A stretch of DNA of 57,277 bases. Origin: an uncultured Clostridia bacterium. GTDB taxonomy: Bacteria > Bacillota > Clostridia > Oscillospirales > Acutalibacteraceae. Position numbers and translations under genes: made by a program. The DNA lies in contig CALWIX010000106.1 of the NCBI GenBank assembly GCA_944380825.1, forward strand, positions 1 through 57,277, given 5' to 3'. Below, piece by piece: positions 8,410-29,657 of the stretch (position 1 is its first letter; every line of letters begins with the position of its first letter). The notes under the pieces are model-generated. The model worked only from the letters and a program-made list of their open reading frames with translations. It searched no databases and had not been told where the DNA came from.

Positions 8410-9540
8410 ATGTTAAAAAGGGAGTACAAAAACACCGGACTCATGATTTCGGCTCTCGGCCTCGGAATGATGCGCCTGCCGCGCGTACAGGAGGACAAGA
8501 CGGACATCGATTATGAAAAAGCGCAGGAAATCGTCGATTACGCGTATAGCCATGGGATCAATTATTTTGATACCGCTTATCCGTATCACGGCGGAACATC
8601 GGAGGAGTTCACCGGCAAGGCGCTGAGCAAGTATCCGCGCGAGAGTTATTTGCTCGCTACAAAATTCCCTATGTGGGCTGCAGAAACGCCGGATGATTTG
8701 GAACGGATCTTTAACGAGCAGCTTGCACGTACACAGGCGGGATATTTTGATTTCTACCTGCTGCATGCCCTTAACGCAGAGCGTGTGGATAAAATTCAAG
8801 AATTTCATATGTACGAGTTCTTCTCTCAGAAGAAAAAAGAGGGCAAGATCCGCCGCCTTGGATTTTCTTTCCACGACACACCGGAGGTTCTCGAACGCTT
8901 GTGTAATTTATACGCATGGGATTTTGCACAGATCCAGCTTAACTACCTTGACTGGGAAATGCAGGATGCAAAGGGACAATATGAAGTTCTAACAAAACAT
9001 GGAATTCCGGTAATCGTCATGGAGCCCGTACGCGGCGGCGCACTGGCGCATCCGTGCGATGAATCGGTGCGCATTTTTGAAGAAGCGGCTCCCGGCAAAT
9101 CAGCTGCCTCTTGGGCGCTGCGGTTTGCGGAAAGCCTGCCGAATGTTTTGGTAGTTCTCAGCGGCATGACTACGATGGATCAAATCCGCGACAATGTCGC
9201 TACCATGAGTGATTTCCATCCGCTTACCGATGACGATCGTGCGGTAATCCAAAAGGCACTGGACGCTTATAAAAAACATAAAACGATTCCTTGCACCGGA
9301 TGCCGTTACTGCATGGACTGCCCGTTTGGAGTCGATATTCCCCTCGTGTTCCAGGTATATAACCGCTATCGCCTCGACGGCAGTAAGGAAAGGTTCTATA
9401 AGGCCTACGCCCAAATTCCAGAAAGCGCCCGTGCAGAGAATTGTCAGGAATGCGGCGCATGTATGACGCAGTGCCCGCAGTCTATCGAAATTCCGGAGCG
9501 TATGAAGGAAATCAACGCGCTGTGGTCTTCCAAAGAATAA
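8410..9540 (+). CDS. aldo/keto reductase fused to a C-terminal Fe-S (ferredoxin-like) domain
   Basis: AKR N-terminus (GLGMMRLP, YFDTAYPYHGGTSEEF) plus two Cys clusters, CTGCRYCMDCP and CQECGACMTQCP. ATG 8410 lies 8 nt after AAAGGGGA; the track start 8389 is a TTG without an RBS. Confidence 0.85.
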   Translation: MLKREYKNTGLMISALGLGMMRLPRVQEDKTDIDYEKAQEIVDYAYSHGINYFDTAYPYHGGTSEEFTGKALSKYPRESYLLATKFPMWAAETPDDLERIFNEQLARTQAGYFDFYLLHALNAERVDKIQEFHMYEFFSQKKKEGKIRRLGFSFHDTPEVLERLCNLYAWDFAQIQLNYLDWEMQDAKGQYEVLTKHGIPVIVMEPVRGGALAHPCDESVRIFEEAAPGKSAASWALRFAESLPNVLVVLSGMTTMDQIRDNVATMSDFHPLTDDDRAVIQKALDAYKKHKTIPCTGCRYCMDCPFGVDIPLVFQVYNRYRLDGSKERFYKAYAQIPESARAENCQECGACMTQCPQSIEIPERMKEINALWSSKE

Positions 9541-14066: not shown

Positions 14067-17000
14067 TTAAAACCACACGCGCCAACTGCGGATTTCAAAC
14101 GGTTTAATACTAAAAGAAATGGCGCTGCTTTCTTGTAATTCACCTTCGACTTCTTCTAAGAGATTACAAGCAGCAAACCGCTTGATTCCATAATCCGATG
14201 TAAGTTCCGCGCTGTGGGTGCCGCCTCTGCATTCGTGTACACGTACAACAAAGCCGTCGCCGTCTTCCGCCTGCTTGACCGCGTCCAAATACAGTGCTGG
14301 ACTGCTCAGACGAACCATCGCTTTTCCACAACCGTCCGTCCTTCCCTCAAAGTACTGCAGAGGAAGATTCAGCGAAACACTCTCTTCAATCGTATCGCCC
14401 TGGATAACGTTTCCCGCGTGGGGCAGCAGCGCATAGGTAAACGTATGCATCCCCATATCGGCCGTAGGATCCGGGCGTTTCGGACTGCGCAGCAGGGAAA
14501 GCTTCATCACATTATCTTTGATGCTGTATCCATACTTGCAGTCATTAAGCAGGCTCACGCCGTAATTCGACTCTGAAAGATCGGCCCATTTATGCCCTAC
14601 CACCTCAAACCGGGCCCAATCCCAGCTTGTGTTCCAATGGGTTGGCCTTTCCACATGTCCGTACTGGATATCATAAGTAGCATGGGTGGAACGCACGTCC
14701 ACAGCAAAGGCGGCTTTAAGCAGGCGATGGCTCTCGTGCCAATCGGCCTTTGTTACAAAGTCGATGCGGCGGCTGTCGCGGTAAACGATTACATCCTGAG
14801 TAAAAGTAGAAAGATTGTAAGCAAAAGCAAAACGGAGGACCATGCGCAACGCGCCGTCTTCTACCACCTGGGGTGCGGCGGTAAGCGAGGCCGTCTCCAT
14901 TTTCTGCGTATAATAAATATCGATATCCCATGCATCATAGTTCATGGGCTTATCTTCGAAGATCTCTAATCGGTTTCCTTCACCGCACAGAACTTCCCGC
15001 GCGTTGTCTTTATCCCAAATCGAACACATACGGCCGGATTCATTCCAGCAAAGGACATAGTGCGGCGTTTCGAGTCGCCGATCCGCCTCGCTATAGGAGA
15101 ACGAGGACGGACTACGGAAGGATTCTCCCGGCACAAACTGTACTGCCGCCATGGAAGCCGCTCCCATCGGAACAGAAACGAACATTCCATCCGCCGTTTT
15201 TTGGCTGTCTAAAACGGCGCCGTCCGCCGCATAGAAGGTCCCATCCGCCGTCACGGGCAGCACAACAGCATCTTTTCTCGCAAAGCTGCCAAAGTGGAAC
15301 ACGGTGTACTCTGTGCCGATAGGCTGCGCCATGGTGCGGAAAATCTCTTGCCGGCCTGCATCGAGCGCATCATTCGCCTGACTGTACTGCTTGCGGGAAT
15401 CCTCATAGACCTCTTGAATGGAGGAGCCGGGAATTACATCGTGGAACTGATTGCGCAGAACCGTCTCCCATGCTTTATGCAGCAGCGCCTGCGGATATGT
15501 TCCGCCCGAAAAGGATCCGACGCTCGCAAGCCACTCCGTCTCTGCCAGTTTGTATTCCATTTTACGGTTCCAGCGTTTATTTTTCGCTTGGGTAGTATAG
15601 GTGCCGCGGTGGTATTCCAGATACAGCTCCCCATCCCACGTTTGAATGTAGTGATCCGTCTTTTCTACAGATTGATGCAGCTTGCGGAAGAAATTACCGG
15701 CTGTGTCTGGCAAAATATTCGGTAAGCCGGGAATTTTCTGCATAGCAAGTTCTAATTTTACCATATCCCGCGTCGCGCCGCCGCCGCCGTCTCCGTAGCC
15801 GTAACCGATGAGAACATCTTTGGAAATATCGCGGTTGCGGAATTTCTTCCAGCTTCCCAAAGCGGTACGTGGAGCCATCATACCATTATAGGTAGAAAAG
15901 CGATCGGTGATGGGGCGATCCTCCGGAGGGACTTCCATGAAATACGAAAGGACCTCGCTTCCGTCAATACCGCGCCAGAAAAACACATCGTTCGGCATGG
16001 TATTAAATTGGTTCCAACTGATTTTGGTTGTCATAAAGGTTTTAATACCGCACTGCTTGAGGATCTGCGGCAGCGCCCAGCTGTATCCAAACACATCTGG
16101 GAGCCACAAGTATTCACATGTCTTTCCAAACTCCTGCTGAAAAAACCGAATTCCATGTAAAAACTGCCGCGTCAGCGACTCGCCGGAGCTGATATTACAG
16201 TCGGCCTCCAGCCACATGCCGCCCTCCGGCTCCCACTGTCCGGCCTTCACCTTTTCCTTCACCCGCTCGTACAACTCGGGACAGTCTTCTTTCAGATATT
16301 TATAGACTTGGGGCTGTGTAAGCAGGAAAATAAACTGATCAAATTCATCCATCAACTGCAGAGCCGTCGCGCAGGAACGTTGTACCTTCTCCCTCGTGTT
16401 TTTATACCGCCATAACCATGCGACATCGATATGTGTCTGCCCTACGCAATGGATTGTAACGGAACTTTCTTTTTTATTTTCGGCCAGAATTTTTTTGAGG
16501 TATGCAAGGGCCTGCCCCACAGAATCGTAAAACTTGTCTTCATCCCAGTTGAGAAAGAGCATGCAGCGTTCCATGGCGTCGAGCAGGACGTCCCTCTCGC
16601 TGTCATCTTCCGGCAGAATTTGAGCCGTCTCCAACGCCGCACGGCAGAGATAATACAGCTCATCCGTATCCTTATGCAAGTAACCCAGATCCGCACGGGT
16701 GAACCTGTGTTCAAACACCGTTTCATATTCCTGACCGCCGCGTCCTGTCCAAAGAAGTAGCATCATTGTGACGCGCCGCCCAGCCAGCTTCTCCAAAAGT
16801 ACGTCATGGTGGTAGGTATCAACCGCTTGATAGGGATGGCCGTCAATATAAAGCATCGATTCAAAACCGCTGTTGAGGCCACCTCCTGTCTTGCCGAAAT
16901 CGAATAGACCCGTCACCTCACATCCGGGACGGCTGGGGGGAATCTGCACCGTCTTGCGTATCCATAAAAATTTATCCTTACCGCAAAAGCGATCGCCCAA

Positions 17001-17189
17001 GGAAAACGGTTTGCCGTCAAAATTTTCCGGCACGCCGGTGTATACTTCGTCATACCCATTTTTCCCTTCCATTGCTTCCAGCGGTGCGATGGTCTGCATA
17101 TCAAAATAACGCCGCTGCGCAAGTTCTTGTACGCGCCGCTCCATTTTTTCCAAAGTAAAAAACAAAACAACTCCTCCTTTATTCCGCAT
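14067..17189 (-). CDS. GH38 alpha-mannosidase
   Basis: HCVGQTHIDVAWLWRYKNTREK and RNQFHDVIPGSSI GH38 signatures. About 1040 aa with no signal peptide. True start may be TTG 17165 (6 nt after AAAGGAGGAG) or ATG 17144 rather than ATG 17189. Confidence 0.9.
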   Translation of the reverse strand: MRNKGGVVLFFTLEKMERRVQELAQRRYFDMQTIAPLEAMEGKNGYDEVYTGVPENFDGKPFSLGDRFCGKDKFLWIRKTVQIPPSRPGCEVTGLFDFGKTGGGLNSGFESMLYIDGHPYQAVDTYHHDVLLEKLAGRRVTMMLLLWTGRGGQEYETVFEHRFTRADLGYLHKDTDELYYLCRAALETAQILPEDDSERDVLLDAMERCMLFLNWDEDKFYDSVGQALAYLKKILAENKKESSVTIHCVGQTHIDVAWLWRYKNTREKVQRSCATALQLMDEFDQFIFLLTQPQVYKYLKEDCPELYERVKEKVKAGQWEPEGGMWLEADCNISSGESLTRQFLHGIRFFQQEFGKTCEYLWLPDVFGYSWALPQILKQCGIKTFMTTKISWNQFNTMPNDVFFWRGIDGSEVLSYFMEVPPEDRPITDRFSTYNGMMAPRTALGSWKKFRNRDISKDVLIGYGYGDGGGGATRDMVKLELAMQKIPGLPNILPDTAGNFFRKLHQSVEKTDHYIQTWDGELYLEYHRGTYTTQAKNKRWNRKMEYKLAETEWLASVGSFSGGTYPQALLHKAWETVLRNQFHDVIPGSSIQEVYEDSRKQYSQANDALDAGRQEIFRTMAQPIGTEYTVFHFGSFARKDAVVLPVTADGTFYAADGAVLDSQKTADGMFVSVPMGAASMAAVQFVPGESFRSPSSFSYSEADRRLETPHYVLCWNESGRMCSIWDKDNAREVLCGEGNRLEIFEDKPMNYDAWDIDIYYTQKMETASLTAAPQVVEDGALRMVLRFAFAYNLSTFTQDVIVYRDSRRIDFVTKADWHESHRLLKAAFAVDVRSTHATYDIQYGHVERPTHWNTSWDWARFEVVGHKWADLSESNYGVSLLNDCKYGYSIKDNVMKLSLLRSPKRPDPTADMGMHTFTYALLPHAGNVIQGDTIEESVSLNLPLQYFEGRTDGCGKAMVRLSSPALYLDAVKQAEDGDGFVVRVHECRGGTHSAELTSDYGIKRFAACNLLEEVEGELQESSAISFSIKPFEIRSWRVWF

Positions 17190-17200
17190 TTCTTTTCCTC

Positions 17201-17229
17201 ATTATAGCAATCCATTCTACTGGATACAA
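17201..17229 (-). promoter_or_regulatory. sigma-A-type promoter for the GH38 gene
   Basis: Minus strand reads TTGTAT (17229-17224), a 17-nt spacer, then TGcTATAAT (-10 at 17206-17201). The spacer contains the inverted repeat ATCCA-N6-TGGAT (17210-17225). Confidence 0.55.
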
Positions 17230-17288
17230 TGCATTTTTTCTGAAAAATTTCTGGATCTTTTTATGCAGAAAAACCGGCTTGTATAAAT

Positions 17289-17331
17289 AAAAATCCTCCG
17301 GAGCAAGAAAGGAATGCTCCGGAGGATTTTT
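17289..17331 (-). terminator. strong intrinsic terminator after FAD paralogue A, upstream of GH38
   Basis: 16-nt arms AAAAATCCTCCGGAGC / GCTCCGGAGGATTTTT with an 11-nt loop. T-run continues (ATTTAT) on the minus strand. Confidence 0.8.
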
Positions 17332-17346
17332 ATAAAAAGATGGAGA

Positions 17347-18726
17347 TCACGGATGTTCTTTATCAAACCAGACGTTTGCAAACACGAGCGCATCATGCAG
17401 AACACTGTACGACAAATCGCGCACATTGGAAATTCCCTGCTTTGCACACAGAGCCGCCGCCGTTCCGGCAGCCTGACCCATCGCCATACAGGATACCGTG
17501 TTGCGGGTAGACATATGGGCATTGTGATCGGAGGTGATCATCATGCCGATAGCAAACAGGTTCTCCAAATTCTTTACTTGAATCGCGCGGTACGGTACAC
17601 CATAAGTACCACCGTTTTTCACTTGGAAACGCGGCGCATAATCGTGGAATCCATAAGAATAGATCTCGTCATCAAAATGGGTAGCGTTCAAAATCTCTTC
17701 ATTAGAGATATCATATTCGCACTCGATGCAGCGCGCACGGCGGATCGTAATAGTAGGAGCGGTACGAGAAATAAAGGCATTCTCCGCACCCGGAATCGTC
17801 TTACGCAGCAGTTCCAAAGCTTCGCGCTGACGGCGGCGCAGTTCAAACTCCGCATCGGCTAAGGCATCGCGATCAGTCGGTGTTTTGGGCATCATGTAGT
17901 TGAGTTTGATAAACATGAAATAGTTATCATGCAGCGTTGTTGTAACGGTATGCATTCCCAGTTCACGAGTCTTTTGACCCAGTTCTTCGGTAATGTTCTC
18001 CCAATCGCCGTCTACACGGATGATCTGATTGCTGCGTCCGTCGCGAGGCCCGCGGGCATATTCCTTCAGAGCACCGTTGTCACGCAGGAACGAATAGTAT
18101 TTATCAATATCAATTCCTCCTACGCCCATGCTGTTAGCAACAGCGTAATCGTTTGGCTCCGTATAGGAAGCTCCCGCCCTTGCAGACAGATCGCCAAAAC
18201 CAGTGGCATCGATAAACACCTTACCCATCACAGCTTCGCAGCCCTGATGACTCTCTGTAATAACGCCCTGAATTCTGCCGCCGGAGACAAGTGCATCGAC
18301 CGCCATGGTATTAAGCATCACATGCACGCCTGCTTCGCGGAGCATTTCGAGCGCTACAAACTTATAAACCTCTACATCTACGCACAGCGTATCGGAATCA
18401 TATTCATAGCGCAGAACGGTATCGTTATGTCCCGAAGCACCGCGCTGCTGTGTCAGCCGCTGGATCATTTCTTCGGGAATACCGCGTACTACCATTCTTT
18501 TTTCTACCCCTGGAAAAGCCTTCCAGAGATTAAAGAAACTGTGCAGGCCGCAACCACCCTCGGCAGCAATGCCTCCCACATATCCCTTGCTCTCAATCAG
18601 GGCTGTTTTGGCACCGGCACGCGCCGCCGCTATTGCTGCAAACACACCGCCTGTACCACCGCCACAGATTACGACGTCATAGTGTCTCGCTGTGATTTTG
18701 CTTTCCGGACGGATAACATACTCCAT
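17347..18726 (-). CDS. FAD-dependent oxidoreductase (FAD_oxidored-type), paralogue A
   Basis: YDVVICGGGTGGVFAAIAAARAGAKTALIE dinucleotide fold. C-terminal AHMSTRNTVSCMAMGQAAGTAAALCAK. RBS GGGAGGAA upstream. Confidence 0.85.
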   Translation of the reverse strand: MEYVIRPESKITARHYDVVICGGGTGGVFAAIAAARAGAKTALIESKGYVGGIAAEGGCGLHSFFNLWKAFPGVEKRMVVRGIPEEMIQRLTQQRGASGHNDTVLRYEYDSDTLCVDVEVYKFVALEMLREAGVHVMLNTMAVDALVSGGRIQGVITESHQGCEAVMGKVFIDATGFGDLSARAGASYTEPNDYAVANSMGVGGIDIDKYYSFLRDNGALKEYARGPRDGRSNQIIRVDGDWENITEELGQKTRELGMHTVTTTLHDNYFMFIKLNYMMPKTPTDRDALADAEFELRRRQREALELLRKTIPGAENAFISRTAPTITIRRARCIECEYDISNEEILNATHFDDEIYSYGFHDYAPRFQVKNGGTYGVPYRAIQVKNLENLFAIGMMITSDHNAHMSTRNTVSCMAMGQAAGTAAALCAKQGISNVRDLSYSVLHDALVFANVWFDKEHP

Positions 18727-19004
18727 AATACAAATTCCTCCCGTTTTATAGGAGCCGGCGTCCGGCTAGAGCTCTTCCCTAGCCGGAACGAGAGCCCCGC
18801 CGCCTTTAAAAATGGCGGTCAGTCCATCTAAAGCGTTCAGCTCCCCTCCGGCACACTGGGAGCGTCTCCCGCATAAAACCGGATGGGAGTGGGAACCTTA
18901 CACCGTTCCCTGACAATAGCAGGGCTGGAACCTCTGCTGGATACGGAACAAGATTCCGTATTAAAGGGTGCAGGATGACAAAACCTTTCTACCGCAGCCC
19001 TTTA
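18727..19004 (-). other. 278-nt GC-rich, hairpin-dense intercistronic spacer (candidate structured RNA element)
   Basis: At least six stem-loops are readable on the minus strand, for example TACGGAA-TCTTG-TTCCGTA, GGGAAC-GGTGTAAG-GTTCCC, CCGCC-ATTTTTAAA-GGCGG and CCGGCTAG-N9-CTAGCCGG. No RBS-preceded ORF. Other spacers in the window are AT-rich. Confidence 0.35.
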
Positions 19005-20378
19005 TTAACCAAGAAATACGTTCTGAGAACGGAGCGTTTCACGCAGCTGCTGGATGTCTACATCACGCGGAAGGACACCAGCTTTTGCACACAACGCTGC
19101 CGCTGTGCCGACCGCCTGCCCCTGGGCCATACAAGAGGCGGTATTACGGGTAGACATATGGGCACTCCAATCGCTGGTAATTAGACGTCCCGCTACCAGA
19201 AGGCCCTCCACGTCTTTTGGTAAGAAGGCACGATATGGAATGCCATAATACTTTGCATCTTTAATCATGATACGCGGTGCGCAATCATGGAAACCATAAA
19301 GCATCACTTCATCATCAAAGCGCTGCGCATTGACGATCTCATCGAGCGTCATATCGTGCTCGCACTCCACCACACGGGTGTAGCGCACACCTACTGCCAC
19401 CGGAGTCCAGCTGACATATGCTTTCTCAAATCCGGGCAGGTATTTTACCATTCTATCAGCAAGAGCCATCGCGCGGTGACGCAGAATAATCTCTGCCTGC
19501 GAAAGCGCTTCGGTACTCGTTGCATCTACACAGGAAAGGTTGACGCCATTGATGTATGTATAGCTGTTTTCATGCAGGGAAGCGCCGAGCGGTCCCCACA
19601 TCTGATTCTCTTCCATGAACTCCTTAAATTCGGGCATCTTCTTAAGCTCAAATCCAAGGCGGATTACATGGTCGGTTTCACTGCCTTTATCTCCACGGAT
19701 AATCTGGTTGACCATATCATGTTCTTCCAAAAACTTCACCAGACGCTCCATGTCCACATTTGTCATGCCAAACGGATAACCAACAGAGGTAGTATCATGC
19801 TTCTTGATGAAATGAGCGCCCGAAAACGCTGCCACATCGGCGTCACCCGTCGTATCAATAACAGCCTTCGCGCTGATGGCCTCGCGGCCCGACTTACCCT
19901 CGATGATCAGCCCTTTGACAGTGTTTCCTTCTTTCATGACGCCAACAACCATTGTATGCAGTAAAATCTTGACGCCCGCTTCCTCCATCATCTCAAAGAT
20001 AACTTCTTTGAAAGCCTCCCAATCGATAAGGGTGATGACGGAATCATAGTTGCCGCCCTTTTCCTGTTCCAAATGTCCGGGAGAAGCACCGCGTTCTTGC
20101 ATACGGTGCACGATCTCATCCGGAATACCACGGATAACCTGCACTTTTTCCGCACCCGGGAACGCTTTATACAAATTGAAGAAACTGTGCAGCGGTCCCG
20201 CGCCGTTGATCATAGAGCCGCCAAGGAACCCATAACGATCAATCAAAATCGTTTTTGCACCGTTGCGTGCAGCAGCCAAAGCCGCCACAACACCGGCCGT
20301 GCCTCCTCCGGCGACAGCGACGTCGTATTCATAATTGATAGGAGTCTGAAGAGATTCGGTAATAAACTGAGTGCTCAT
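19005..20378 (-). CDS. FAD-dependent oxidoreductase (FAD_oxidored-type), paralogue B
   Basis: YDVAVAGGGTAGVVAALAAARNGAKTILID. C-terminal AHMSTRNTASCMAQGQAVGTAAALCAK. Alignable end to end with paralogue A. Ends in tandem TAA TAA stops. Confidence 0.85.
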   Translation of the reverse strand: MSTQFITESLQTPINYEYDVAVAGGGTAGVVAALAAARNGAKTILIDRYGFLGGSMINGAGPLHSFFNLYKAFPGAEKVQVIRGIPDEIVHRMQERGASPGHLEQEKGGNYDSVITLIDWEAFKEVIFEMMEEAGVKILLHTMVVGVMKEGNTVKGLIIEGKSGREAISAKAVIDTTGDADVAAFSGAHFIKKHDTTSVGYPFGMTNVDMERLVKFLEEHDMVNQIIRGDKGSETDHVIRLGFELKKMPEFKEFMEENQMWGPLGASLHENSYTYINGVNLSCVDATSTEALSQAEIILRHRAMALADRMVKYLPGFEKAYVSWTPVAVGVRYTRVVECEHDMTLDEIVNAQRFDDEVMLYGFHDCAPRIMIKDAKYYGIPYRAFLPKDVEGLLVAGRLITSDWSAHMSTRNTASCMAQGQAVGTAAALCAKAGVLPRDVDIQQLRETLRSQNVFLG

Positions 20379-20396
20379 GAGACGATTTCCTTTCTT

Positions 20397-22958
20397 TTAC
20401 TTTACAGTGATAACATGATAGGGATACGGATAAACCGAATGGTAAACACCCGGGAACATTCCACATGTACCAGACTTATCCTGTACCGTTACATACACCA
20501 TCAGATCCCAATCGGAAGTGATGTACTCTGCCGGAACAGATGCGCAGTAAGCCGTTCCATTCCATTGCATCGGAATCGTATGGAATAACCCTTCTGTTTG
20601 ATTCACATGACGGTAATGAAGTACCGGCACCGTTTCGGATTCTTGAATTCCCTGAAGGTACGCTGTAACGACAAGCTCTTTTCCCGCTTGTACGCAATCG
20701 GGAAGATCCGCTGTAACGACAGAAGCCTCCTCGGGCTCATATTCTGCATAAAGTTTTTCTGCACGAGTGACACCGTTTTCTGACAGCAATGCGCTCAGTG
20801 TCTTCTCGTCCGCCTCCAACTCACAGGTACGATCCGCCCATGTGCCGCGTCTTGTCTTCGATCCGGCAGAACTGAAATCGAGATCTTTATAATACTTTTC
20901 AAGGCCAAGGGACGACAGAGCGTTCCACTGTCCCACCGCTTCGTCCAGAAGCAGTGCGCAGTCGGAGAGCCATTTTCCATCCTTCGTGAGATCCCATTTG
21001 GCCAAAGCAAGTGCTGCACGCATTTTATAGGCGTGGTAGCGAGCCATATAGACTAGCATCGTCAAATCCGTGCACATCGCAAGATATTCCGGAGACTTCG
21101 GATCGGAGACGTCCGCAGCGCTGTTCTTCAGGCCGTTTTCCGTCTCATCCGCGAGATCTAAAAGCCAGCGCGAGGTTTGCAGCGGAGAATATTTGCCGGC
21201 AAATTCCTGCTTTGCGCCGTCTTTGGCGTACTCATCAATTCCATAGAACAGCCCCTGATCGCTCGGTTCAGTAGAACCATAAGTAACACGCTTGAAAAGA
21301 TCATAGTCTTGTGGTTTATCGAGGTTATTTTCAAAGAAAAGCGCCCATCCGGTACTGAGCTCCGTCCAATAACGCAGGGACGGATGCACAGGCATATGGA
21401 TGGTTGTAATCAGCGGAATGATTCGGCTAGCCACAGAGAGCGTCTTCTCTAAAGCAGGACCAGCTTTGCCAAAACGGGCGGCAAACTCGCTCTGCCAAAT
21501 CTCCGGGTCTGCCTTGCGGTTGTATCCGAGTCTACCGAACACTATGTACCACATCCAGAAGCGTTCATCTTCCCATTTTCCACTGCGCAGGGCCGGATCT
21601 GCAAAAGTATCCCAGTGTTCCTTATGAGAAAGCTCATGGCCATATTTCAAAGAAAGCGGCGCATTTACTTCGTAGCCTGTGGAATCAGAAAGTCCACAGC
21701 TTTCTCCGAAACGGCGTGCATAATCCGCATCGCCCCACAAGAACAGGTTTGTAGAACCGTAATTCCACAAACGGTAAAATACATCAAAATATTTCGGTTT
21801 GCGCAGCATATCCGCATAGGAATAACGGCGCGAATGGTTGAAGTTATCGAGCTGGGCAATTTCTTCGCTGCGCATAACGGAAAGGTGATACGGAAGGGCA
21901 GCGTGTTCGCACCAATATTTGGTGGGAACCTCTACCTGCAGACCCTTTGAGAACGCATGCACAATCATCGAATCGGTTAAGCCCTTGGCTCGTAGATCCA
22001 AAATAAGAGGACGACCCGTTTCCTGTGCGACCTCGGCCACGGCATCAGTGCAGGAATTCCAGAAATCTTCTGCGGAAACCTGTGTTCCTACGCCGGATTC
22101 ATGGTTGACACGGAACTGTACGATATCGATCTCCGGAACAGCTTTCACCAATGCCTTTAATCCTGCATGACAATAGTCACTCAGCTCTTTTTCGCCATCC
22201 GGCAATCCCTCTACAAGGCGATCCTGCGCGGTTGTCCATGGGCGCTGCTGCCACGTTGCAAACGTAAAGAGAATACCACGATCGTGGCACATTTGCCCGA
22301 TGTGGCGCAAAGCGGCGAGGTTCTCGGCACACTGCTGCGGTGTAAGCTTAGAAGACTTTACCTGCTCATATCCCTCTACTGTAAGGAAGAACGGATACGG
22401 CGGGGCCATATAGGCCGTGTCGAAGCCTACAATCAGACAGAAACGGTTAAAGCGGTTATACGCCAGTCTTTCCAGATAATACTCCCAAAATTCTTCCGAA
22501 AGAAACCACTCGTTATCAAGGTGGCCTAGAAGATACCGATCCATGCAGCGGACACGGTTATCGGGCTTTTCCGTATAGCTCTCTAGATTTTGTAAAGCAC
22601 TCAGACCATCTCTGCGTACTTTTCTAGCTACATCCAGAAGCAGATACATTAAACCTGTATCGTCCGAACCGGCCAATACTAACACTTTTCCCTTCTGCGT
22701 TTCACACCACTGGCAGAAAATGCTCTCGGGACCTGTATGATAGTCAACATCATTATCTTCTAATAAAACCTGTATTCTACGATCCCCGCTTGTGCCTACT
22801 GCAACTGCAAAGGGATCCATATTTTCCAGTGCTGCCCAATGGGGTGTTTCACAAAACTTACCCCCACAGGCATTCACTGCCTTTTCCAACTCCTTTTTGC
22901 CATACAGCGCGCTGTTTTTTACATCAAACCAGCTTACTGCAAACGTTACATTTTCCAT
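20397..22958 (-). CDS. large uncharacterised cytoplasmic protein, putative carbohydrate-active enzyme (853 aa)
   Basis: Uninterrupted 853-codon frame 18 nt upstream of FAD paralogue B. No signal peptide or TM segment. Trp/Tyr-rich. No catalytic signature of a family I can name. Confidence 0.8.
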   Translation of the reverse strand: MENVTFAVSWFDVKNSALYGKKELEKAVNACGGKFCETPHWAALENMDPFAVAVGTSGDRRIQVLLEDNDVDYHTGPESIFCQWCETQKGKVLVLAGSDDTGLMYLLLDVARKVRRDGLSALQNLESYTEKPDNRVRCMDRYLLGHLDNEWFLSEEFWEYYLERLAYNRFNRFCLIVGFDTAYMAPPYPFFLTVEGYEQVKSSKLTPQQCAENLAALRHIGQMCHDRGILFTFATWQQRPWTTAQDRLVEGLPDGEKELSDYCHAGLKALVKAVPEIDIVQFRVNHESGVGTQVSAEDFWNSCTDAVAEVAQETGRPLILDLRAKGLTDSMIVHAFSKGLQVEVPTKYWCEHAALPYHLSVMRSEEIAQLDNFNHSRRYSYADMLRKPKYFDVFYRLWNYGSTNLFLWGDADYARRFGESCGLSDSTGYEVNAPLSLKYGHELSHKEHWDTFADPALRSGKWEDERFWMWYIVFGRLGYNRKADPEIWQSEFAARFGKAGPALEKTLSVASRIIPLITTIHMPVHPSLRYWTELSTGWALFFENNLDKPQDYDLFKRVTYGSTEPSDQGLFYGIDEYAKDGAKQEFAGKYSPLQTSRWLLDLADETENGLKNSAADVSDPKSPEYLAMCTDLTMLVYMARYHAYKMRAALALAKWDLTKDGKWLSDCALLLDEAVGQWNALSSLGLEKYYKDLDFSSAGSKTRRGTWADRTCELEADEKTLSALLSENGVTRAEKLYAEYEPEEASVVTADLPDCVQAGKELVVTAYLQGIQESETVPVLHYRHVNQTEGLFHTIPMQWNGTAYCASVPAEYITSDWDLMVYVTVQDKSGTCGMFPGVYHSVYPYPYHVITVK

Positions 22959-23122
22959 TCACAATTCCTCCCACAAAGCGGCAAAGCAGATACTTTTTCT
23001 AAAAAGCATCCAGATGCTCTGCCATTAGAACGCGTAGGCTTTCCAATAAACCTATGCAATTACACTCTTGTCACTAGGCGGCCTGCGGACCGCAGCTGCG
23101 CATTACACGCAGGCCAGCCTTA

Positions 23123-23968
23123 TTACTCTTTCATGCCGGAGGTAGCAATACCTGCAACAAACTGCTTCTGGAACGCAAGGAACACGATAAAAATCGGGAT
23201 CAAAGAACATACGGAAGCTGCCATGATGGCGCCATAGCTGGTCGAGTTTTCATCTTTAAAGTAGTTCAGTCCGAGAGGAATAGTCGCCAGTTCCATGCTA
23301 CGCAAATATACCAGAGGACCTTCGTACTCGTTCCACGATCCAACAAACTGGAAGATAATCAGTGCACTGAACGCCGAAATAGAAAGCGGCACCACAATGC
23401 GAGAGAAGATAACAAAATGGTTTGCACCATCAATTTTTGCGGATTCACTAAGTTCTTCCGGAATGGTCTCAAAGAACTGTTTGAGCATAAAGGTACCAAA
23501 CGCCGTAAACATACCGGGAAGAATCAGAGCCCAGTGTGTGTTGTAAAGACCCATCTGAGAGAACAACACAAAGCGCGGAATCAGCATCATCTGGTTTGGA
23601 AAGACAAGTGTAGAAAGGTATGTCAAAAAGATGATATTAGAACCTCTAAACTTAATTTTTGCAAACGCATAGCCTGCCAGCGCACTTGTGAATACTTCAC
23701 CTAGCACCGAAATAACCGTAATCTTTATGGAATTGAGGAAAAAGGTAGTAAACGGAATGTCAGAATTCCAAACACGGTCGTAATTCGCAAAGGTGATTTC
23801 CCGCGGAATCCATTCGATAGGGAAATTAAAGATTTGGTTATCCGGCTTGAAGGAAGCGGAAAGCATCCACGCAAAGGGCATGAGCATAATAATGGAAACG
23901 ATCGCCATGATAATGGTGGCGACAATTTTAAAAATAAGCTTTCTTCGTGAATATCCCATCCTGCGCAC
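23123..23968 (-). CDS. carbohydrate ABC transporter permease (MalG-like)
   Basis: Six hydrophobic segments and EAA loop LSESAKIDGANHFVIFSRIVVPLS. Confidence 0.9.
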   Translation of the reverse strand: MRRMGYSRRKLIFKIVATIIMAIVSIIMLMPFAWMLSASFKPDNQIFNFPIEWIPREITFANYDRVWNSDIPFTTFFLNSIKITVISVLGEVFTSALAGYAFAKIKFRGSNIIFLTYLSTLVFPNQMMLIPRFVLFSQMGLYNTHWALILPGMFTAFGTFMLKQFFETIPEELSESAKIDGANHFVIFSRIVVPLSISAFSALIIFQFVGSWNEYEGPLVYLRSMELATIPLGLNYFKDENSTSYGAIMAASVCSLIPIFIVFLAFQKQFVAGIATSGMKE

Positions 23969-23971
23969 CTC

Positions 23972-24880
23972 CTACTTATTTTTCCGCTCGTAAATCATCC
24001 GGGCTGCCGCAAAGATAAAGACCAAAACAAACAGCACCCAAGACATAGCGCTCGCATAACCTATATCGCTGTGCTTAAACGCCGTGGTGTATATGTAGTA
24101 CACCAGAACCGAGGAAGAGTTGCCCGGCCCGCCGGAGGTCATAACCTGTACAGGCGTGAATACCTGGAAGGAGCGGATAATTGAAATCATTGTCAAGAAG
24201 AACATCGTGCTGGAAAGAGACGGGATTGTAATGTAAAAGAATTTTTGCACGGCGTTGGCGCCATCGATTTCAGCAGATTCATACAGAGATTTAGAAATGC
24301 CCTGCAAACCAGCGAGCACGATAATAATATTATAACCAATGCTCTGCCATACGCCGACGATGATAATGGAAAGCAGCGATGTATCGCTGCCGTTGAGCCA
24401 ACGGGGCGGATTTTCGATGCCAATGCTCTGGAGAACCTGATTGATAGGACCATAGCTCGGCAGGAAGAGAACCATCCACACAATAGAAACTGCCACCATG
24501 GAGGATACGTTCGGCAGATAGTACGCTAACCGCAGGATGCCCTTTCCATAAACGTTATCATTGAGGATAACCGCAAAAACAAGAGCGATAAAAATAGAAA
24601 CAGGCACCAGAACGATTGCATAAATAATTGTATTAATTAGAGAATCTACGAAAATAGGATCCTTGGGGAGAGCTAGATAGTTGTCTATTCCGGCAAACTT
24701 AATATTCTCAACACCGGAAATAAAGTTCCAATCCGCAAAACTCAGAATGAGCGCGAGAATAAGAGGAATCAGCTTGAACGCTACGTACCCAATGAAGTTT
24801 AGGGAAATGAACGCATAGCCCGCCAAATTTTCACGCCTCTGAAGCGCGGAAGTTTTCCTTTTTTTCGTTACAGCGGCCAC
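23972..24880 (-). CDS. carbohydrate ABC transporter permease (MalF-like)
   Basis: EAA loop LYESAEIDGANAVQKFFYITIPSLS. GTG start at 24880. 3-nt gap to the next permease. Confidence 0.9.
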   Translation of the reverse strand: MAAVTKKRKTSALQRRENLAGYAFISLNFIGYVAFKLIPLILALILSFADWNFISGVENIKFAGIDNYLALPKDPIFVDSLINTIIYAIVLVPVSIFIALVFAVILNDNVYGKGILRLAYYLPNVSSMVAVSIVWMVLFLPSYGPINQVLQSIGIENPPRWLNGSDTSLLSIIIVGVWQSIGYNIIIVLAGLQGISKSLYESAEIDGANAVQKFFYITIPSLSSTMFFLTMISIIRSFQVFTPVQVMTSGGPGNSSSVLVYYIYTTAFKHSDIGYASAMSWVLFVLVFIFAAARMIYERKNK

Positions 24881-24908
24881 AAAATCACATCCAATCCATA
24901 AATAAGAC

Positions 24909-24943
24909 GGCCCGCCAAATAGTGCAACCGTATTCGGCGGGCC
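24909..24943 (-). terminator. intra-operon hairpin/partial terminator after the binding-protein gene
   Basis: Minus strand reads GGCCCGCCGAATA-N9-TATTTGGCGGGCC followed by GTCTTATTTAT. Confidence 0.5.
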
Positions 24944-24991
24944 TTAAACCTTTAACTTATTTCTTATTCAGAAACACACTGACAAATCGGC

Positions 24992-26437
24992 TTAGCCTGC
25001 CATGTCTTCCTGAATGTACTGATCGCCCTTCGTCTTAAGATCTGCAAGAGCTTCGTCTACACTCATTTCGCCATTGAACACGAGAGCCATATCAGCCTGG
25101 ATCAGATCGTTGATTTTTACCTGACCTTCCTTATGGGTATTATCCTTGGTAATGAGGGTGCGCGGCTGCTCCATAACAGCGATCGCATCGTCCGCATTGA
25201 GTCCCGGATGACCATCAAAGATAATTTCGTTCATCGCATGAGTAGATTCTTCATCCTCAAACTGAACGCCGGGGTGCATCGCCTTCGGGCCAGCAAAGTA
25301 TTCCGGATGCTCGATGCAGATGAACTTCAGCAGTGCCCAAGAAGCATCGGGGTTCGGAGCGTTGGCCGGGATACTAGCAGTAGAAGTATAGGTGATAGAG
25401 CTGTTCTCTGTTGCGCCAACAGGACGCGGCAGGTTGGCCATGCCAATATTGGTGCCTTCCGGAACTTCACCGTAGCTCTCGTTGAGATACAGGCAAGCAT
25501 AAACCGGCGCTACAAACATCGCATACTTGTTGTTGTACAGACCGATCATACCGTTCGTGTCGTTGTTGTACTTCAGAGTGGTGTACTCAGAAATCGGAAC
25601 GACGGACTGGTCAACCATAGCGAGATCATAGAAGAACTGCAGACTCTCCTTATACTCGGGAGCGTCAAAGCGAGTAGCTGTAAAATCGGGGGTATAGTAC
25701 GAAAATGCACCCAACTTCTGCTGTGCAATCAGCTGCCAGTACTGATCGCCGCCGCCGCCTTCGCTCGGTCCGCCGTAGTCAAGCATCGCACCGTAAATCT
25801 TGTTCGCGCCTTCACCAGAGGTCATCTGCTTCGCGATATCACGGAAATCATCCCAAGTCCAATCATCTGCCGGATAATCAACGCCAGCCTCGTCAAACAT
25901 ATTCTTGTTGTACCAAACCATGTTGATGTTGGTGCAGTACGGAACGGCATAGTAATCGCCGTCAAAGTTATATGCCTGCTCCATCGAATCACTGAAGAGT
26001 GTAGCATAGTCCATACCTTCAGCATCCAGATACTGTTTGAGGCCCAGATAGGTACCGCTGTCAGCACGCGTACGAACGTCAATAGCGCTCGCTTGTGTCA
26101 TAACATCAATCTGCTCGCCGGAAGCAAGAGCCGTGTTGATCGTCATGGTAGCTGCGTCATTGAGCTTCTGATATACCAGATTGTACTGACCCTCATACTG
26201 CTCATTAAATGCATCCACTAATTCGACAACGTTATCGGGGTTTGTCCAAGCATAGAAATACACATTGTACTCTTCGCCAGATTCATTACCCGTTGCGGAA
26301 GAACCTGCATCACTGGTAGAACTTCCACCATCAGAGCTTGCGCCGGAAGACGTTTGGCCACTGCTGCATCCAGTCGCGGCTGCGGATACCATTAAAGCCG
26401 CCATCAGGACTGCTGCAATTTTCCTGAACTTTTTCAT
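24992..26437 (-). CDS. ABC transporter extracellular sugar-binding lipoprotein
   Basis: Signal peptide plus lipobox MKKFRKIAAVLMAALMVSAAATGCSS, followed by a Ser/Gly/Asp-rich linker. 481 aa. RBS GGGAGG. Confidence 0.9.
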   Translation of the reverse strand: MKKFRKIAAVLMAALMVSAAATGCSSGQTSSGASSDGGSSTSDAGSSATGNESGEEYNVYFYAWTNPDNVVELVDAFNEQYEGQYNLVYQKLNDAATMTINTALASGEQIDVMTQASAIDVRTRADSGTYLGLKQYLDAEGMDYATLFSDSMEQAYNFDGDYYAVPYCTNINMVWYNKNMFDEAGVDYPADDWTWDDFRDIAKQMTSGEGANKIYGAMLDYGGPSEGGGGDQYWQLIAQQKLGAFSYYTPDFTATRFDAPEYKESLQFFYDLAMVDQSVVPISEYTTLKYNNDTNGMIGLYNNKYAMFVAPVYACLYLNESYGEVPEGTNIGMANLPRPVGATENSSITYTSTASIPANAPNPDASWALLKFICIEHPEYFAGPKAMHPGVQFEDEESTHAMNEIIFDGHPGLNADDAIAVMEQPRTLITKDNTHKEGQVKINDLIQADMALVFNGEMSVDEALADLKTKGDQYIQEDMAG

Positions 26438-26755
26438 GTAAGAAACCTCCCTTAGTAAAAATATAAATACTTTTTTTGAAACGGCTGTTTGTTTCTCCAG
26501 AAAAACTAATCAGCCTTTTCGACCATCATTATTCACGCTTTTTACTTAAAAAACGTATTTCGCGGACAAACAACAAACCCTAAACCGACCTTCAAAGACT
26601 GTCTGCCTAACAACCATACGTCCAAGCGTTTTTAAAACCTTTTTCATGCGCCGGCGCACGCCTGCCGCAAGAAATATCTATACGGTATAACTCAAAACTC
26701 CCCAAAGTAAGCAGACATCCTATCACGTCTGCCGTGTGCAGCCTGAAACTATTTC

Positions 26756-28423
26756 TCAGTGCTCCACAACTTTATCAATCGAGTTACCCATCGAACAGTC
26801 AGCCTGTTCCTGTACCACGACATCAATGATATACGGTTTCAAAGATGCCTGTGCACGTTTCATGGCCGGGATAAGATCCTCCGGCTTGAACACACGCTCA
26901 CCAGCACAGCCAAGGCCCTCTGCCACTTTAACATAATCAACAAAGCCATGATCTTCTTTCATCTCTACAGCGTACTCATATCCGTAAGCATACTTCTGAT
27001 TTTGACGGATTAGGCCGAGATATGCGTTGTTGACAATAACCACGATAACCGGACGATTATATTTTGCACAGGTAGCCAGCTCCTGCACATGGAAGGTGAA
27101 ACCGAAGTCACCCATCACAGCAACTGCACGCTTTCCGGGCTGGGCTGTCATAGCGCCAAACGCCGCCGGAATATCGTAACCGAGGGTACCAGCACCGCCG
27201 GACGGCAGATAGTGACGAGGCTTATCAGCCTCCTGAAGCTGACCAGACCAAATTTGCGTAATGCCACAGCCGGTAGTAAACATTGTATCCGAATCAAATG
27301 CCTCATTAATGGCACCAAATACGCGGTGCGGATGAATCGGAATGCAATCCATATCGGTCTTTCTCTTCAGTGCGGGACGCAGCTGTGCGAGTTTTTCAGC
27401 GGTGCCTTCTCTCTTGGCAATGTTCTGTTTCTTAACTTCTTCAATCAAGGCTTTGATGGCAAGACCTGCATCGGAGACGATTCCAAGATCGGCCGGGAAG
27501 ATCTTGTTGATTTCCTTCGGCTCTATATTAATATGTATAAACTTGCGATCGCCGCGATACTCTTTGATAGAACCAGTGTGACGGTCAGTAAAGCGACAGC
27601 CAATACCGAGGACCATATCCGAATCAAGCAGGACACGGTTGCCAAGAGGCTGACCAACCTGAATGCCCGCATGACCAGCGTTAAGCGGATGATTGATCGG
27701 GATGCCTCCCTTAGCCATATAAGTGGTGATGACCGGAATGTTGAGCATCTCGGCAAGTTCTACACACTCTTCACAAGCGTTCGCTTCTACAACGCCGCCA
27801 CCCATGATGATGACCGGATTCTTGGCGCCCTTAAGCATCTCGACAGCCTGCTGAATTTTTTCAACCTCTGGACCTTTCTTTTCGATCGAATATGGCACAT
27901 AAGAATCGGGATCAAATTCGATCTCTGCATTCTGAATATCAAGCGGCAGATCAATAAGAACCGGACCGGGTTTCCCTTCCCGAGCAATACGGAATGCTTC
28001 ATGGAACACTTCTACAATCTGATCCTTATCTCTTACACACCAAGACTTCTTTGTAACAGGTGCTACAATAGTAGCAATATCGATGCATTGGAACGCATCT
28101 TTAAAGAGCTGGCCGGTAACAGCCTGACCGGTGATCGCGATCAGCGGAATAGAATCAACATGAGCAGTGTAAAGACCAGTGGTAAAATTCGTGGCGCCGG
28201 GGCCGGATGTGCACAGAGCCGCTGCCATTTTTCCGCTTGCACGGTAGTACCCTCCCGCTGCATGTACAGCGGCTTCTTCGTGGCGCACCGTATAATGCTT
28301 AATTTTGCTCTGAGCCTTATCCATATACTTGTAAAGCCCATTGATGCTTGCCCCAGGAATTCCGAAAGCATCGGTGATGCCTTCCTTCTCGAGAATCCTG
28401 ACAATAGCTTCACTTACAACCAT
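26756..28423 (-). CDS. thiamine-diphosphate enzyme, glyoxylate-carboligase-like (acetolactate-synthase superfamily)
   Basis: ThDP motif MGDFGFTFHVQELATCAKYNRPVIVVIVNNAYLG. Long colinear matches to E. coli Gcl as remembered (IDLPLDIQNAEIEFDPDSY, SDMVLGIGCRFTDRHTGSIKEY, VNNAYLGLIRQNQ, VKVAEGLGCAGERVFKPEDL). Confidence 0.88.
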   Translation of the reverse strand: MVVSEAIVRILEKEGITDAFGIPGASINGLYKYMDKAQSKIKHYTVRHEEAAVHAAGGYYRASGKMAAALCTSGPGATNFTTGLYTAHVDSIPLIAITGQAVTGQLFKDAFQCIDIATIVAPVTKKSWCVRDKDQIVEVFHEAFRIAREGKPGPVLIDLPLDIQNAEIEFDPDSYVPYSIEKKGPEVEKIQQAVEMLKGAKNPVIIMGGGVVEANACEECVELAEMLNIPVITTYMAKGGIPINHPLNAGHAGIQVGQPLGNRVLLDSDMVLGIGCRFTDRHTGSIKEYRGDRKFIHINIEPKEINKIFPADLGIVSDAGLAIKALIEEVKKQNIAKREGTAEKLAQLRPALKRKTDMDCIPIHPHRVFGAINEAFDSDTMFTTGCGITQIWSGQLQEADKPRHYLPSGGAGTLGYDIPAAFGAMTAQPGKRAVAVMGDFGFTFHVQELATCAKYNRPVIVVIVNNAYLGLIRQNQKYAYGYEYAVEMKEDHGFVDYVKVAEGLGCAGERVFKPEDLIPAMKRAQASLKPYIIDVVVQEQADCSMGNSIDKVVEH

Positions 28424-28632
28424 GACTCTCTATACTCCTTTTCTTTTTAATTTTGGGATTCCTAAATTTTATTTTTTGAAATCTCATTTCATCTTGTCAT
28501 AAGCTTATCACATTTTTCACTATAAATCAAGACTTTTTTTAAAAAAAATTATTACTTAAATGATTTACTAAAATATAATTTTTAAATATAAAATTAAATT
28601 TCATTTTAAATAAGAGAATAATAAAATATTTG

Positions 28633-28675
28633 TTGATTTTGAATATTGAAATCAATTGCTATTAACTAGTATAAT
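28633..28675 (+). promoter_or_regulatory. candidate iclR promoter overlapped by an inverted repeat (possible IclR operator)
   Basis: TTGATTT-N9-AAATCAA (28633-28655) overlaps -35 TTGAAA (28646-28651). An 18-nt spacer leads to -10 TATAAT (28670-28675). Confidence 0.4.
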
Positions 28676-28815
28676 AAATATACACATCGTTTTTTATTAA
28701 TGATTCGTTGCACAGTTTTGTATAGCAAAAGGTTTGTAAAAATTGAATAATGCTGTACTTGTCAATATTTTATCCGGCTAAATAGAACAAATTTATTACT
28801 AGGAGGTCTTACACT

Positions 28816-29622
28816 ATGAGCCCCAGACCCTACTCATCGAATCAATCTTCCGCCAAAATGCTTGACATTATTGAATTTTTAGCCGATCACAATAATGAAC
28901 CTATGCGTTTAAAAGATATTGCTGACGGTTTATCTATGAGTCCCAGCACGGTGCTTCGCTTTTTAAGCTCTCTCATGGAACGCGATTATCTATGGCAGGA
29001 TCCCAACTCTTTGCAGTATTCGCTTACCCTTAAGCTATGTTCTGTTGCAAACAAAGTCAGTTCTAACCTTCAATTATACGATCTTGCTCTGCCAATTATG
29101 AAACAGATCTGTGCACGGTTTGGGGAATCCGTCTGCCTTGCAGAGGAACAAGATATGGAGGCCGTATACATAGGTGTCGTTCGTACCCCGGATCAGATGC
29201 TTCAAACCATGCAGCGCATCGGCAACCGTGCTCCCTTGCATTCTACAGGCGTAGGTAAATTGCTGCTTCTCAATTATAGCGAGGCAAAAATCGATCGCTT
29301 AATCTCTACAAAAGGCTTACCTGCCTTAACTAAAAATACAATTACCACAAAAACTGGTCTGATAGAAAAAATCGCTCAAATCCGCCGCCAAGGCTATGCT
29401 TACGATGATGAGGAATGCGAAATCGGCGCACGCTGTATTGCTGTTCCTGTATACAACTATACGGGAAAGGTCATCGCTGGATTAAGTGTAACGGGTCCCG
29501 TTTCACGTATGTCCTACCAAAAAATTGACGAATATAAAGATTTTCTTTTAAATCAAGGGGATAAACTCTCCCATCTTCTGGGGTATTTAGGAAATAAAGG
29601 ACACTTTACCGAATTACATTAA
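28816..29622 (+). CDS. IclR-family transcriptional regulator
   Basis: N-terminal wHTH MRLKDIADGLSMSPSTVLRFLSSLMERDYL and C-terminal effector domain (GVGKLLL, YAYDDEECEIGARCIAVPV). GGAGG RBS. Confidence 0.88.
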   Translation: MSPRPYSSNQSSAKMLDIIEFLADHNNEPMRLKDIADGLSMSPSTVLRFLSSLMERDYLWQDPNSLQYSLTLKLCSVANKVSSNLQLYDLALPIMKQICARFGESVCLAEEQDMEAVYIGVVRTPDQMLQTMQRIGNRAPLHSTGVGKLLLLNYSEAKIDRLISTKGLPALTKNTITTKTGLIEKIAQIRRQGYAYDDEECEIGARCIAVPVYNYTGKVIAGLSVTGPVSRMSYQKIDEYKDFLLNQGDKLSHLLGYLGNKGHFTELH

Positions 29623-29657
29623 AGTTAAAACACAAAACAGAAGAGGAGTGAACGGCG

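Follow-up and report, generated by a model that had tools for sequence, protein, structure and literature searches.

Acidic xylo-oligosaccharides are utilized by Geobacillus and Paenibacillus through the aldouronate route, in which an ATP-binding cassette (ABC) transporter imports them, a cytoplasmic alpha-glucuronidase of glycoside hydrolase (GH) family 67 takes off the acid sugar, and the released glucuronate enters an isomerase pathway. The same logic, a CUT1-type importer coupled to an intracellular enzyme of predicted uronidase-like fold, is found in the locus described here, which lies on 57,277 nucleotides from an uncultured Clostridia bacterium of the Acutalibacteraceae (contig CALWIX010000106.1, assembly GCA_944380825.1; the window hereafter means this whole stretch). 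The locus encodes a sugar importer, an 853-residue protein and two flavoproteins, and upstream of them a thiamine diphosphate (ThDP)-dependent enzyme and LarA; the aldouronate system, in contrast, has no flavoproteins, ThDP enzyme or LarA.

A further comparison is offered by the xanthan loci of Microbacterium xanthanicum and Paenarthrobacter ilicis, where an ABC importer adjoins an unassigned flavin adenine dinucleotide (FAD)-dependent oxidoreductase that is 42-60x more abundant on xanthan, and where GH38 and a hydroxyacid dehydrogenase are encoded as well, joined in Microbacterium by a glycerate kinase (bioRxiv 10.64898/2026.04.20.719765; PMC12772297). Paenarthrobacter and Microbacterium XT11 are reported to be without GH88, and the authors left unexplained both how glucuronic acid is removed and what becomes of pyruvylated mannose (bioRxiv 10.64898/2026.04.20.719765; PMC12772297). 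Unlike the module in the window, these loci contain PL8, GH9 and GH3 genes, have no reported GH138-like gene and belong to aerobic Actinobacteria, and their FAD proteins can be likened to ours by description only. The xanthan locus of gut Ruminococcaceae has no such flavoprotein. Because the FAD proteins are matched by description and the window is without every other xanthan enzyme, we take this resemblance as a lead only. An earlier interpretation of the same DNA, made from the nucleotide sequence without database searches (the sequence-only reading), knew of no characterized system with this composition, and our literature search, which returned no description of the gene combination and nothing new on the catabolism of pyruvylated mannose, likewise found none.

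Importer, 853-residue protein and flavoprotein form a conserved unit

Seven minus-strand open reading frames (ORFs) lie between 14067 and 26437, with coordinates that match the sequence-only reading exactly. In the direction of transcription, they encode the lipoprotein solute-binding protein of a CUT1-type sugar ABC importer (24992-26437; SBP_bac_1), the MalF/UgpA-like permease 1 (23972-24880) and the MalG/UgpE-like permease 2 (23123-23968; both BPD_transp_1), the 853-residue protein (20397-22958), flavoprotein A (19005-20378), flavoprotein B (17347-18726) and an Ams1/MAN2C1-type GH38 alpha-mannosidase (14067-17189). Pfam agrees with the families proposed earlier for the binding protein, the permeases, the two flavoprotein paralogues and GH38.

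A locus scan with one genome per species yielded 54 loci, to which the closest relatives were added from contigs. We define as related the 34 loci in which the homologue of the 853-residue protein is at least 53% identical; 32 of them could be assessed for downstream sequence. A flavoprotein gene adjoins the homologue in 32 of these 32 loci, usually with both paralogues present, and the same binding-protein and permease genes nearly always lie upstream, the two permeases being collinear in 25 related loci. Importer, 853-residue protein and flavoprotein are a tightly conserved unit, the part of the neighborhood proposed by the sequence-only reading that holds up; its GH38 component does not, occurring in a single related locus. 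The hosts comprise Lachnospiraceae, Oscillospiraceae, Anaerocolumna, Mahella, termite-gut Treponema and an Anaerolineae metagenome-assembled genome, and thus span Bacillota, Spirochaetota and Chloroflexota. Other neighbors in the related loci are mostly unrelated or belong to no family. Below 53% identity the association fades, with a flavoprotein neighbor in 1 of 30 homologues and GH38 beside none.

The one related locus with GH38 is that of the closest relative (L061, 85% identical), where the gene again stands behind its own promoter. In the window, an intrinsic terminator with a 19-bp stem and a T-run (17278-17333, minus strand; -31.1 kcal/mol, z = -7.8, none of 200 shuffles as stable) ends the importer, glycosidase and flavoprotein unit between the flavoprotein B gene and GH38, and an extended -10 box, TGCTATAAT, kept in L061, precedes GH38 at 17209-17201. 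The sequence-only reading had correctly recognized both the strong terminator and the separate promoter. Because it is absent from 33 of the 34 related loci and lies behind a terminator with its own promoter, GH38 is a lineage-specific neighbor outside the conserved unit, which contradicts the view that the locus is built around GH38 and the breakdown of mannosides or N-glycans. We accordingly distinguish Unit 1 (17347-30929), a conserved unit that we read as a laterally spread catabolic module and that extends upstream into the acid-metabolism genes discussed below, from Unit 2 (14067-17189), the GH38 transcription unit.

The identity of the GH38 product is clear from its four Pfam domains (N-terminal catalytic, middle, C-terminal and beta-sandwich: 288, 97, 224 and 59 bits, E 7e-86 to 4e-16, all above their cut-offs) and from its match to Ams1 (PDB 6lz1; E 1e-140, residues 239-1038). 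The longest ORF begins with an ATG at 17189 (1040 residues), and an in-frame TTG at 17165 (1032 residues) follows AAAGGAGGAG. Since both the AAAGGAGGAG element and the TTG start are conserved in L061 (8150-8190), the TTG at 17165 is probably the true start. Intergenic regions were also searched for an operator that GH38 might share with the IclR regulon, and only AT-rich chance matches were obtained.

Predicted functions of the 853-residue protein and the flavoproteins

The sequence-only reading described the 853-residue protein as of no recognizable family, and there is indeed no Pfam match; NCBIfam NF049878 (alpha-D-galacturonidase) reaches 44.6 bits (E 5e-12) over residues 449-690 only, far below its cut-off of 1300. 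An AlphaFold2 model, built on 51 homologues, is nevertheless confident (pLDDT 90.5, pTM 0.92), and the five best Foldseek matches to it are all GH138 (6hzf and 6hzg, that is, BPa0997; E 5e-31, TM 0.63-0.77, 13% identity), followed by GH20, GH67 alpha-glucuronidases and GH84. With this predicted GH138/GH67-type glycosidase fold, the protein is not without recognizable relatives, and the earlier supposition that it stands in the place of an extra glycosidase is not supported. The model has the GH138 domain order, with an N-terminal alpha/beta domain, a (beta/alpha)8 barrel, a helical domain and a C-terminal beta-sandwich, and the match to GH138 (BT0997/BPa0997 of the Bacteroides rhamnogalacturonan-II system), the best that we obtained, extends over all of these domains. 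Consistently, a profile of the 853-residue family matches the GH138 6hzf chains (E 5e-13), with similarity in the N-terminal and helical domains.

Two glutamates are invariant in the family: barrel strand 4 is followed by E287 (in RVNHESG), and strand 6 by E351 (in KYWCEH). The two are spaced similarly to the catalytic glutamates of GH138, and both fall inside the intervals expected from the flanking alignments; hhalign aligned the helical domain only. One GH138 catalytic glutamate, E361, is named in PDB entry 6hzg; the other is presumably E294. Despite these likenesses, the 853-residue protein differs from GH138 in that it appears to be cytoplasmic in Gram-positive bacteria and spirochaetes, whereas GH138 is periplasmic and belongs to a Bacteroides polysaccharide utilization locus, and in its genetic linkage to flavoproteins. 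A search with a reconstructed BPa0997 fragment retrieved truncated proteins only and no full-length GH138. Judging from the model, the protein is best called a distant GH138-like putative glycosidase outside GH138 proper, most likely one that acts on acid sugars, and it probably founds a new glycoside hydrolase family related to GH138. This unannotated family is large, with 664 clusters at 50% identity (E ≤ 1e-30) and 1747 at 1e-10, and the only added domain seen in its longer members is a galactose-binding-like module.

Distant homologues occur well outside the related loci and are annotated as hypothetical on haloarchaeal and rhizobial plasmids. The Haladaptatus sp. DYSN1 plasmid NZ_CP120471.1 carries several such paralogues near three mandelate-racemase-family genes, a sugar ABC importer and GH88, and Rhizobium leguminosarum pSK01 has one near a mandelate-racemase-family gene, a peptide-type ABC importer and IclR. 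A Poribacteria contig also places a distant homologue beside a gene of the mandelate-racemase/enolase superfamily, a superfamily that includes acid-sugar dehydratases.

Both flavoproteins, which are 40% identical to each other, are predicted PF12831 FAD-dependent oxidoreductases: each covers positions 1-416 of the 416-position profile, with 277 bits for B and 299 for A against a cut-off of 27, and each has a single N-terminal dinucleotide-binding GxGxxG motif (GGGTAG and GGGTGG, at residues 24 and 22). Orthologues of A share 65-87% identity across phyla and rank with the best-conserved genes in the module. B represents a second orthologous group, which is present in about two-thirds of the related loci and absent from several, including the closest relative L061. 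Sequence and structure searches gave no characterized close relative, in agreement with the sequence-only reading, and returned a generic two-domain FAD fold (TM ~0.4-0.5) with matches to geranylgeranyl reductase, flavocytochrome c3 fumarate reductase, MnmG, the sarcosine oxidase beta subunit and L-amino-acid deaminase. Orthology to geranylgeranyl reductase, TcuA, GlpB or GidA was rejected, as only the N-terminal FAD motif matches and the scores lie far under the cut-offs. The literature on PF12831/FAD_oxidored that we found consists of flavoproteome lists without biochemistry, and no source names a function for these flavoproteins. Five arginines are invariant in both paralogues (R240, R300, R332, R335 and R411) and would suit a carboxylate substrate.

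Homologues of about 30% identity to the flavoproteins of the window lie directly beside CUT1 sugar importers on plasmids. Microvirga pMVF16-4 and Deinococcus aetherius pDAETH-1 carry minimal cassettes of this kind in the order LacI, permease, permease, binding protein and FAD-dependent oxidoreductase, the same order as in the unassigned cassette of the published xanthan loci; in Deinococcus, the FAD gene is grouped with a sugar kinase, a short-chain dehydrogenase/reductase, a KDPG-type aldolase and a sugar isomerase. Such neighborhoods, like the invariant arginines, speak for a small acid derived from sugar as the likely flavoprotein substrate.

The two flavoprotein genes of the window are separated by a GC-rich, structured spacer of 278 nt (18727-19004, minus strand; -119.7 kcal/mol, z = -4.7), where the equivalent gap in related loci measures 20-120 nt. 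Neither the rest of the window nor the related loci contain a copy of the spacer, and an Rfam scan of the window, spacer included, gave no match. The spacer may serve in mRNA processing or stability, or it may be left over from an insertion.

Acid-metabolism genes and a candidate pathway

Upstream of the importer lies a gene for a glyoxylate-carboligase-like but non-canonical ThDP enzyme (26756-28423, minus strand). Gcl is its best-scoring family by about 150 bits, which led us to reject IolD, Xsc and acetolactate synthase, and the Gcl structures 8beo and 2pan match at E 1e-150. Divergent from this gene, an IclR-family regulator (28816-29622, plus strand; HTH_IclR and IclR_C) has BhcR, KdgR, IclR and AllR as its best NCBIfam matches, all under their cut-offs. 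The earlier statement that no regulator is present is true inside 14067-26437, but it overlooks this gene, whose counterparts recur in 15 related loci. Next follows LarA (29658-30929, plus strand), which belongs to the nickel-pincer lactate racemases: it scores 602 bits against NF033504 (equivalog cut-off 460), matches PDB 2yjg at E 1e-148, and aligns with that structure at the motifs CHRGTT, EPHFF, GGRKS and ANHCS, with the equivalents of His108, His174, Lys184 and His200, which comprise catalytic histidines, the lysine that tethers the cofactor and the nickel-binding histidine, all present. By these sequence features, it is predicted to be a genuine lactate racemase.

The same upstream part is found in Massiliimalia timonensis (75% identity), where LarA and IclR (divergent) are followed by the ThDP enzyme, the binding protein, two permeases, an 862-residue protein, two flavoproteins, an AP_endonuc_2 protein and a 2-hydroxyacid dehydrogenase; the window shares ThDP enzyme, IclR and LarA with it. 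Among 29 related loci whose ORFs were clustered, the ThDP enzyme and IclR each occur in 15, the 2-hydroxyacid dehydrogenase in 12, LarA in 11, AP_endonuc_2 in 9, and CdaR with glycerate 2-kinase in 3. Often, as in loci L009, L012 and L049, the flavoprotein genes are collinear with the ThDP gene, which comes immediately after them, and there are many genomes in which they are directly followed by the genes for the ThDP enzyme, AP_endonuc_2 and the dehydrogenase. The dehydrogenase is closest to the model PRK06487, which we take to be a glycerate-dehydrogenase model. The AP_endonuc_2 partner matches PF01261 only, with no NCBIfam match at 1e-5 and D-psicose 3-epimerase as its best PDB match (E 0.2). 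In one relative (68% identical), the two flavoprotein genes are directly followed by galK, galT and galE and a MalT-type regulator (L062, 7131-10441), a hint that galactose may be among the products there.

The remaining genes of the window are housekeeping genes. A putative glycoside hydrolase of 664 residues with a GH120 insertion domain and a beta-helix (44413-46407, plus strand) lies among recJ and relA and is apparently unrelated to the locus, and an aldo/keto reductase (8389-9540, plus strand) has the uncommon architecture of a fused C-terminal 4Fe-4S dicluster domain.

The uronidase-like fold, the acid-sensing regulator types, the genes for 2-oxo and 2-hydroxy acids, the neighbors of the distant homologues and the galK-galT-galE genes of L062 together point to a carboxylate-bearing glycoside as the substrate class. 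We tentatively favor a pathway in which such an acidic glycoside is imported and hydrolyzed in the cytoplasm, the acid product is oxidized by a flavin-dependent enzyme, and the resulting C2 and C3 acids are salvaged. The analysis itself establishes the gene content, the modeled fold of the 853-residue protein, the pattern of conservation and the boundary between the transcription units, whereas the acidity of the substrate, each catalytic step and the reaction order are inferred. The lipoprotein binding protein and the two CUT1 permeases would import a carboxylate-bearing glycoside or oligosaccharide, using an ATPase from elsewhere in the genome, an arrangement usual in Firmicutes. The binding protein has an N-terminal lipoprotein signal, MKKFRKIAAVLMAALMVSAAATG|C (...AAATG|C), with lipobox ATG|C, and its PDB matches are generic sugar-binding relatives that give no hint of the ligand; inspection of the other N-termini by eye revealed no signal peptide, so that the locus enzymes appear to be cytoplasmic, as the sequence-only reading had proposed. 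In the cytoplasm, the 853-residue TIM-barrel enzyme, very distantly GH138/GH67-like, would hydrolyze off an acidic or acid-substituted sugar, and one or both PF12831 flavoproteins would then oxidize the acidic product next to the carboxylate, yielding either a neutral sugar and 2-oxo-acid fragments or a keto-acid sugar. The Gcl-like ThDP enzyme and LarA would salvage the acids, and in other genomes the glycerate-dehydrogenase-like enzyme, the xylose-isomerase-like barrel protein and glycerate 2-kinase would complete a route to glycerate or 2-phosphoglycerate and to lactate or pyruvate. The IclR regulator (CdaR in some genomes) would sense an acid intermediate, and GH38, acquired in this lineage, would at most trim mannose from this imported oligosaccharide or from a related one.

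The salvage branch mirrors two routes of E. coli, gcl-hyi-glxR-glxK from glyoxylate to glycerate and the CdaR-controlled garLRK (via tartronate semialdehyde), in its Gcl-like ThDP enzyme, xylose-isomerase-like barrel, glycerate-forming dehydrogenase, glycerate kinase and IclR or CdaR regulator. Unlike those routes, the reductase belongs to the D-2-hydroxyacid dehydrogenase family rather than to GlxR/GarR, and there is no aldolase or dehydratase.

Several observations weigh against the proposed pathway. The ThDP enzyme stays below both Gcl equivalog cut-offs (646 bits against 791 for NF008431, and 548 against 711). In true Gcl, moreover, the ThDP-activating glutamate is replaced by valine (Val51 in E. 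coli), whereas RHEEAAVH of the window protein, aligned to RHVEGASH of E. coli Gcl, keeps the canonical glutamate; for these two reasons, the enzyme may catalyze a carboligation or decarboxylation other than that of Gcl. The AP_endonuc_2 partner cannot be recognized as a hydroxypyruvate isomerase, as no similarity of Hyi/OtnI type was found, and with a ThDP enzyme that also departs from Gcl, the analogy to gcl-hyi-glxR is only architectural. The catalytic residues of the 853-residue protein could not be mapped onto GH138, since hhalign covered the helical domain alone. No electron acceptor is evident for two soluble FAD dehydrogenases in strict anaerobes, and there is no gene for an electron-transferring flavoprotein or ferredoxin nearby, which favors a redox-neutral or reductive role for the flavoproteins; several genomes have kept only one of the two. 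Finally, no enzyme of the module has a characterized orthologue, and the acidity of the substrate is argued from family analogy and gene context only.

A bolder extension, which we regard as doubtful, is that the PF12831 flavoproteins form a new class of sugar-acting flavoenzyme that dehydrogenates next to a sugar carboxylate in strict anaerobes, together with the new glycoside hydrolase family founded by the 853-residue protein. Candidate targets could be the uronate C4-C5 bond or the alpha-carbon of an O-(1-carboxyalkyl) ether or ketal, such as the lactyl and pyruvyl groups of bacterial exopolysaccharides, and the outcome would be release of the substituent as a 2-oxo acid, or a cleavage made possible by the oxidation. 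If true, opine oxidase chemistry would have an oxygen analogue, and modified acid sugars with no catabolic pathway known at present would have a route of breakdown.

Other readings and significance of the module

A redox step in glycan breakdown, as suggested by the sequence-only reading, remains plausible, whether on the glycosidic bond or on the released acid product. Were it on the bond, the flavoproteins would make a keto-sugar from a ring hydroxyl of the imported glycoside, and the aglycone or a 4-O substituent would leave by beta-elimination, with AP_endonuc_2 as the lyase, the dehydrogenase or the second flavoprotein restoring the sugar, and the 853-residue protein providing one of two cleavage routes. 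The strict adjacency of flavoprotein, glycosidase and importer fits such oxidation-assisted cleavage, as do the nine loci with AP_endonuc_2, and a pair of paralogues could supply one oxidation and one reduction, which would suit anaerobes without an external acceptor. There is also precedent in 3-keto-glycoside elimination and C-glycoside deglycosylation, where a redox cofactor labilizes a glycosidic or ether bond and an oxidoreductase is paired with a xylose-isomerase-like lyase. The oxidoreductases of those pathways, however, are of the Gfo/Idh/MocA or GMC type, to which the PF12831 flavoproteins of the window showed no similarity in the sequence and structure searches, and we know of no link between oxidative glycoside cleavage and a GH138-like hydrolase or 2-hydroxyacid salvage. 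AP_endonuc_2 is absent from the window and from two-thirds of the loci, and wherever it does occur, it is accompanied by the 2-hydroxyacid dehydrogenase and usually comes after the ThDP gene, not beside the flavoproteins. As LarA, the ThDP enzyme and glycerate kinase are also left unexplained, we consider this mechanism unlikely.

Two further readings give GH38 a larger part. This lineage may consume fragments of acidic, mannose-containing exopolysaccharides such as xanthan, receiving glucuronosyl-mannosyl oligosaccharides or pyruvylated mannose from primary degraders, with GH38 as a working member, the 853-residue protein removing the uronic acid, and the flavoproteins processing the modified or acid sugar. 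This would agree with the conservation of GH38 adjacency and promoter in L061, with the combination of importer, FAD-dependent oxidoreductase, GH38 and hydroxyacid dehydrogenase in the Microbacterium and Paenarthrobacter loci (bioRxiv 10.64898/2026.04.20.719765; PMC12772297), and with the order LacI, permease, permease, binding protein and FAD at a 32%-identical flavoprotein homologue. It is nonetheless quite improbable in our judgment: the window has no PL8, GH5, GH9, GH88, GH3 or GH94 gene, the other 33 related loci have no GH38, spirochaetes of the termite gut make up many of the hosts, the likeness to the FAD protein of the xanthan loci (534 residues) is one of description only, and the glucuronic acid of xanthan is beta-linked, whereas GH138 and GH67 are alpha-uronidases. 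Least probable is the original proposal of a mannoside or N-glycan locus around GH38, in which the flavoproteins and the 853-residue protein replace the usual glycosidases, kinases and isomerases. Ams1/MAN2C1-type GH38 enzymes do act on free oligomannosides, and the genes are adjacent and on the same strand; the conservation analysis nevertheless largely refutes this reading already, GH38 is set apart by terminator and promoter, the conserved partners are genes of acid rather than mannose metabolism, and the 853-residue protein resembles uronidases.

Regardless of the exact chemistry, the pathway that we tentatively favor, import of an acidic glycoside followed by cytoplasmic hydrolysis and flavin-dependent oxidation of the acid product, would make the module a variant of a familiar sugar-utilization operon, with a fair prospect that it conceals new enzyme chemistry and also a new glycoside hydrolase family. 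The 853-residue protein represents a large enzyme family without a Pfam model, and relatives of the flavoproteins adjoin sugar importers on many plasmids and may also do so in xanthan loci. Cultured hosts, among them Anaerocolumna sp. MB42-C2, A. sedimenticola CBA3638 and Massiliimalia timonensis, make the module directly testable. Finding the substrate might fill the missing uronate-removal or modified-mannose step of the recent xanthan studies and might reveal how anaerobes dispose of acid-modified sugars, and thousands of genes in the microbiomes of gut, rumen and termites would gain a functional assignment.

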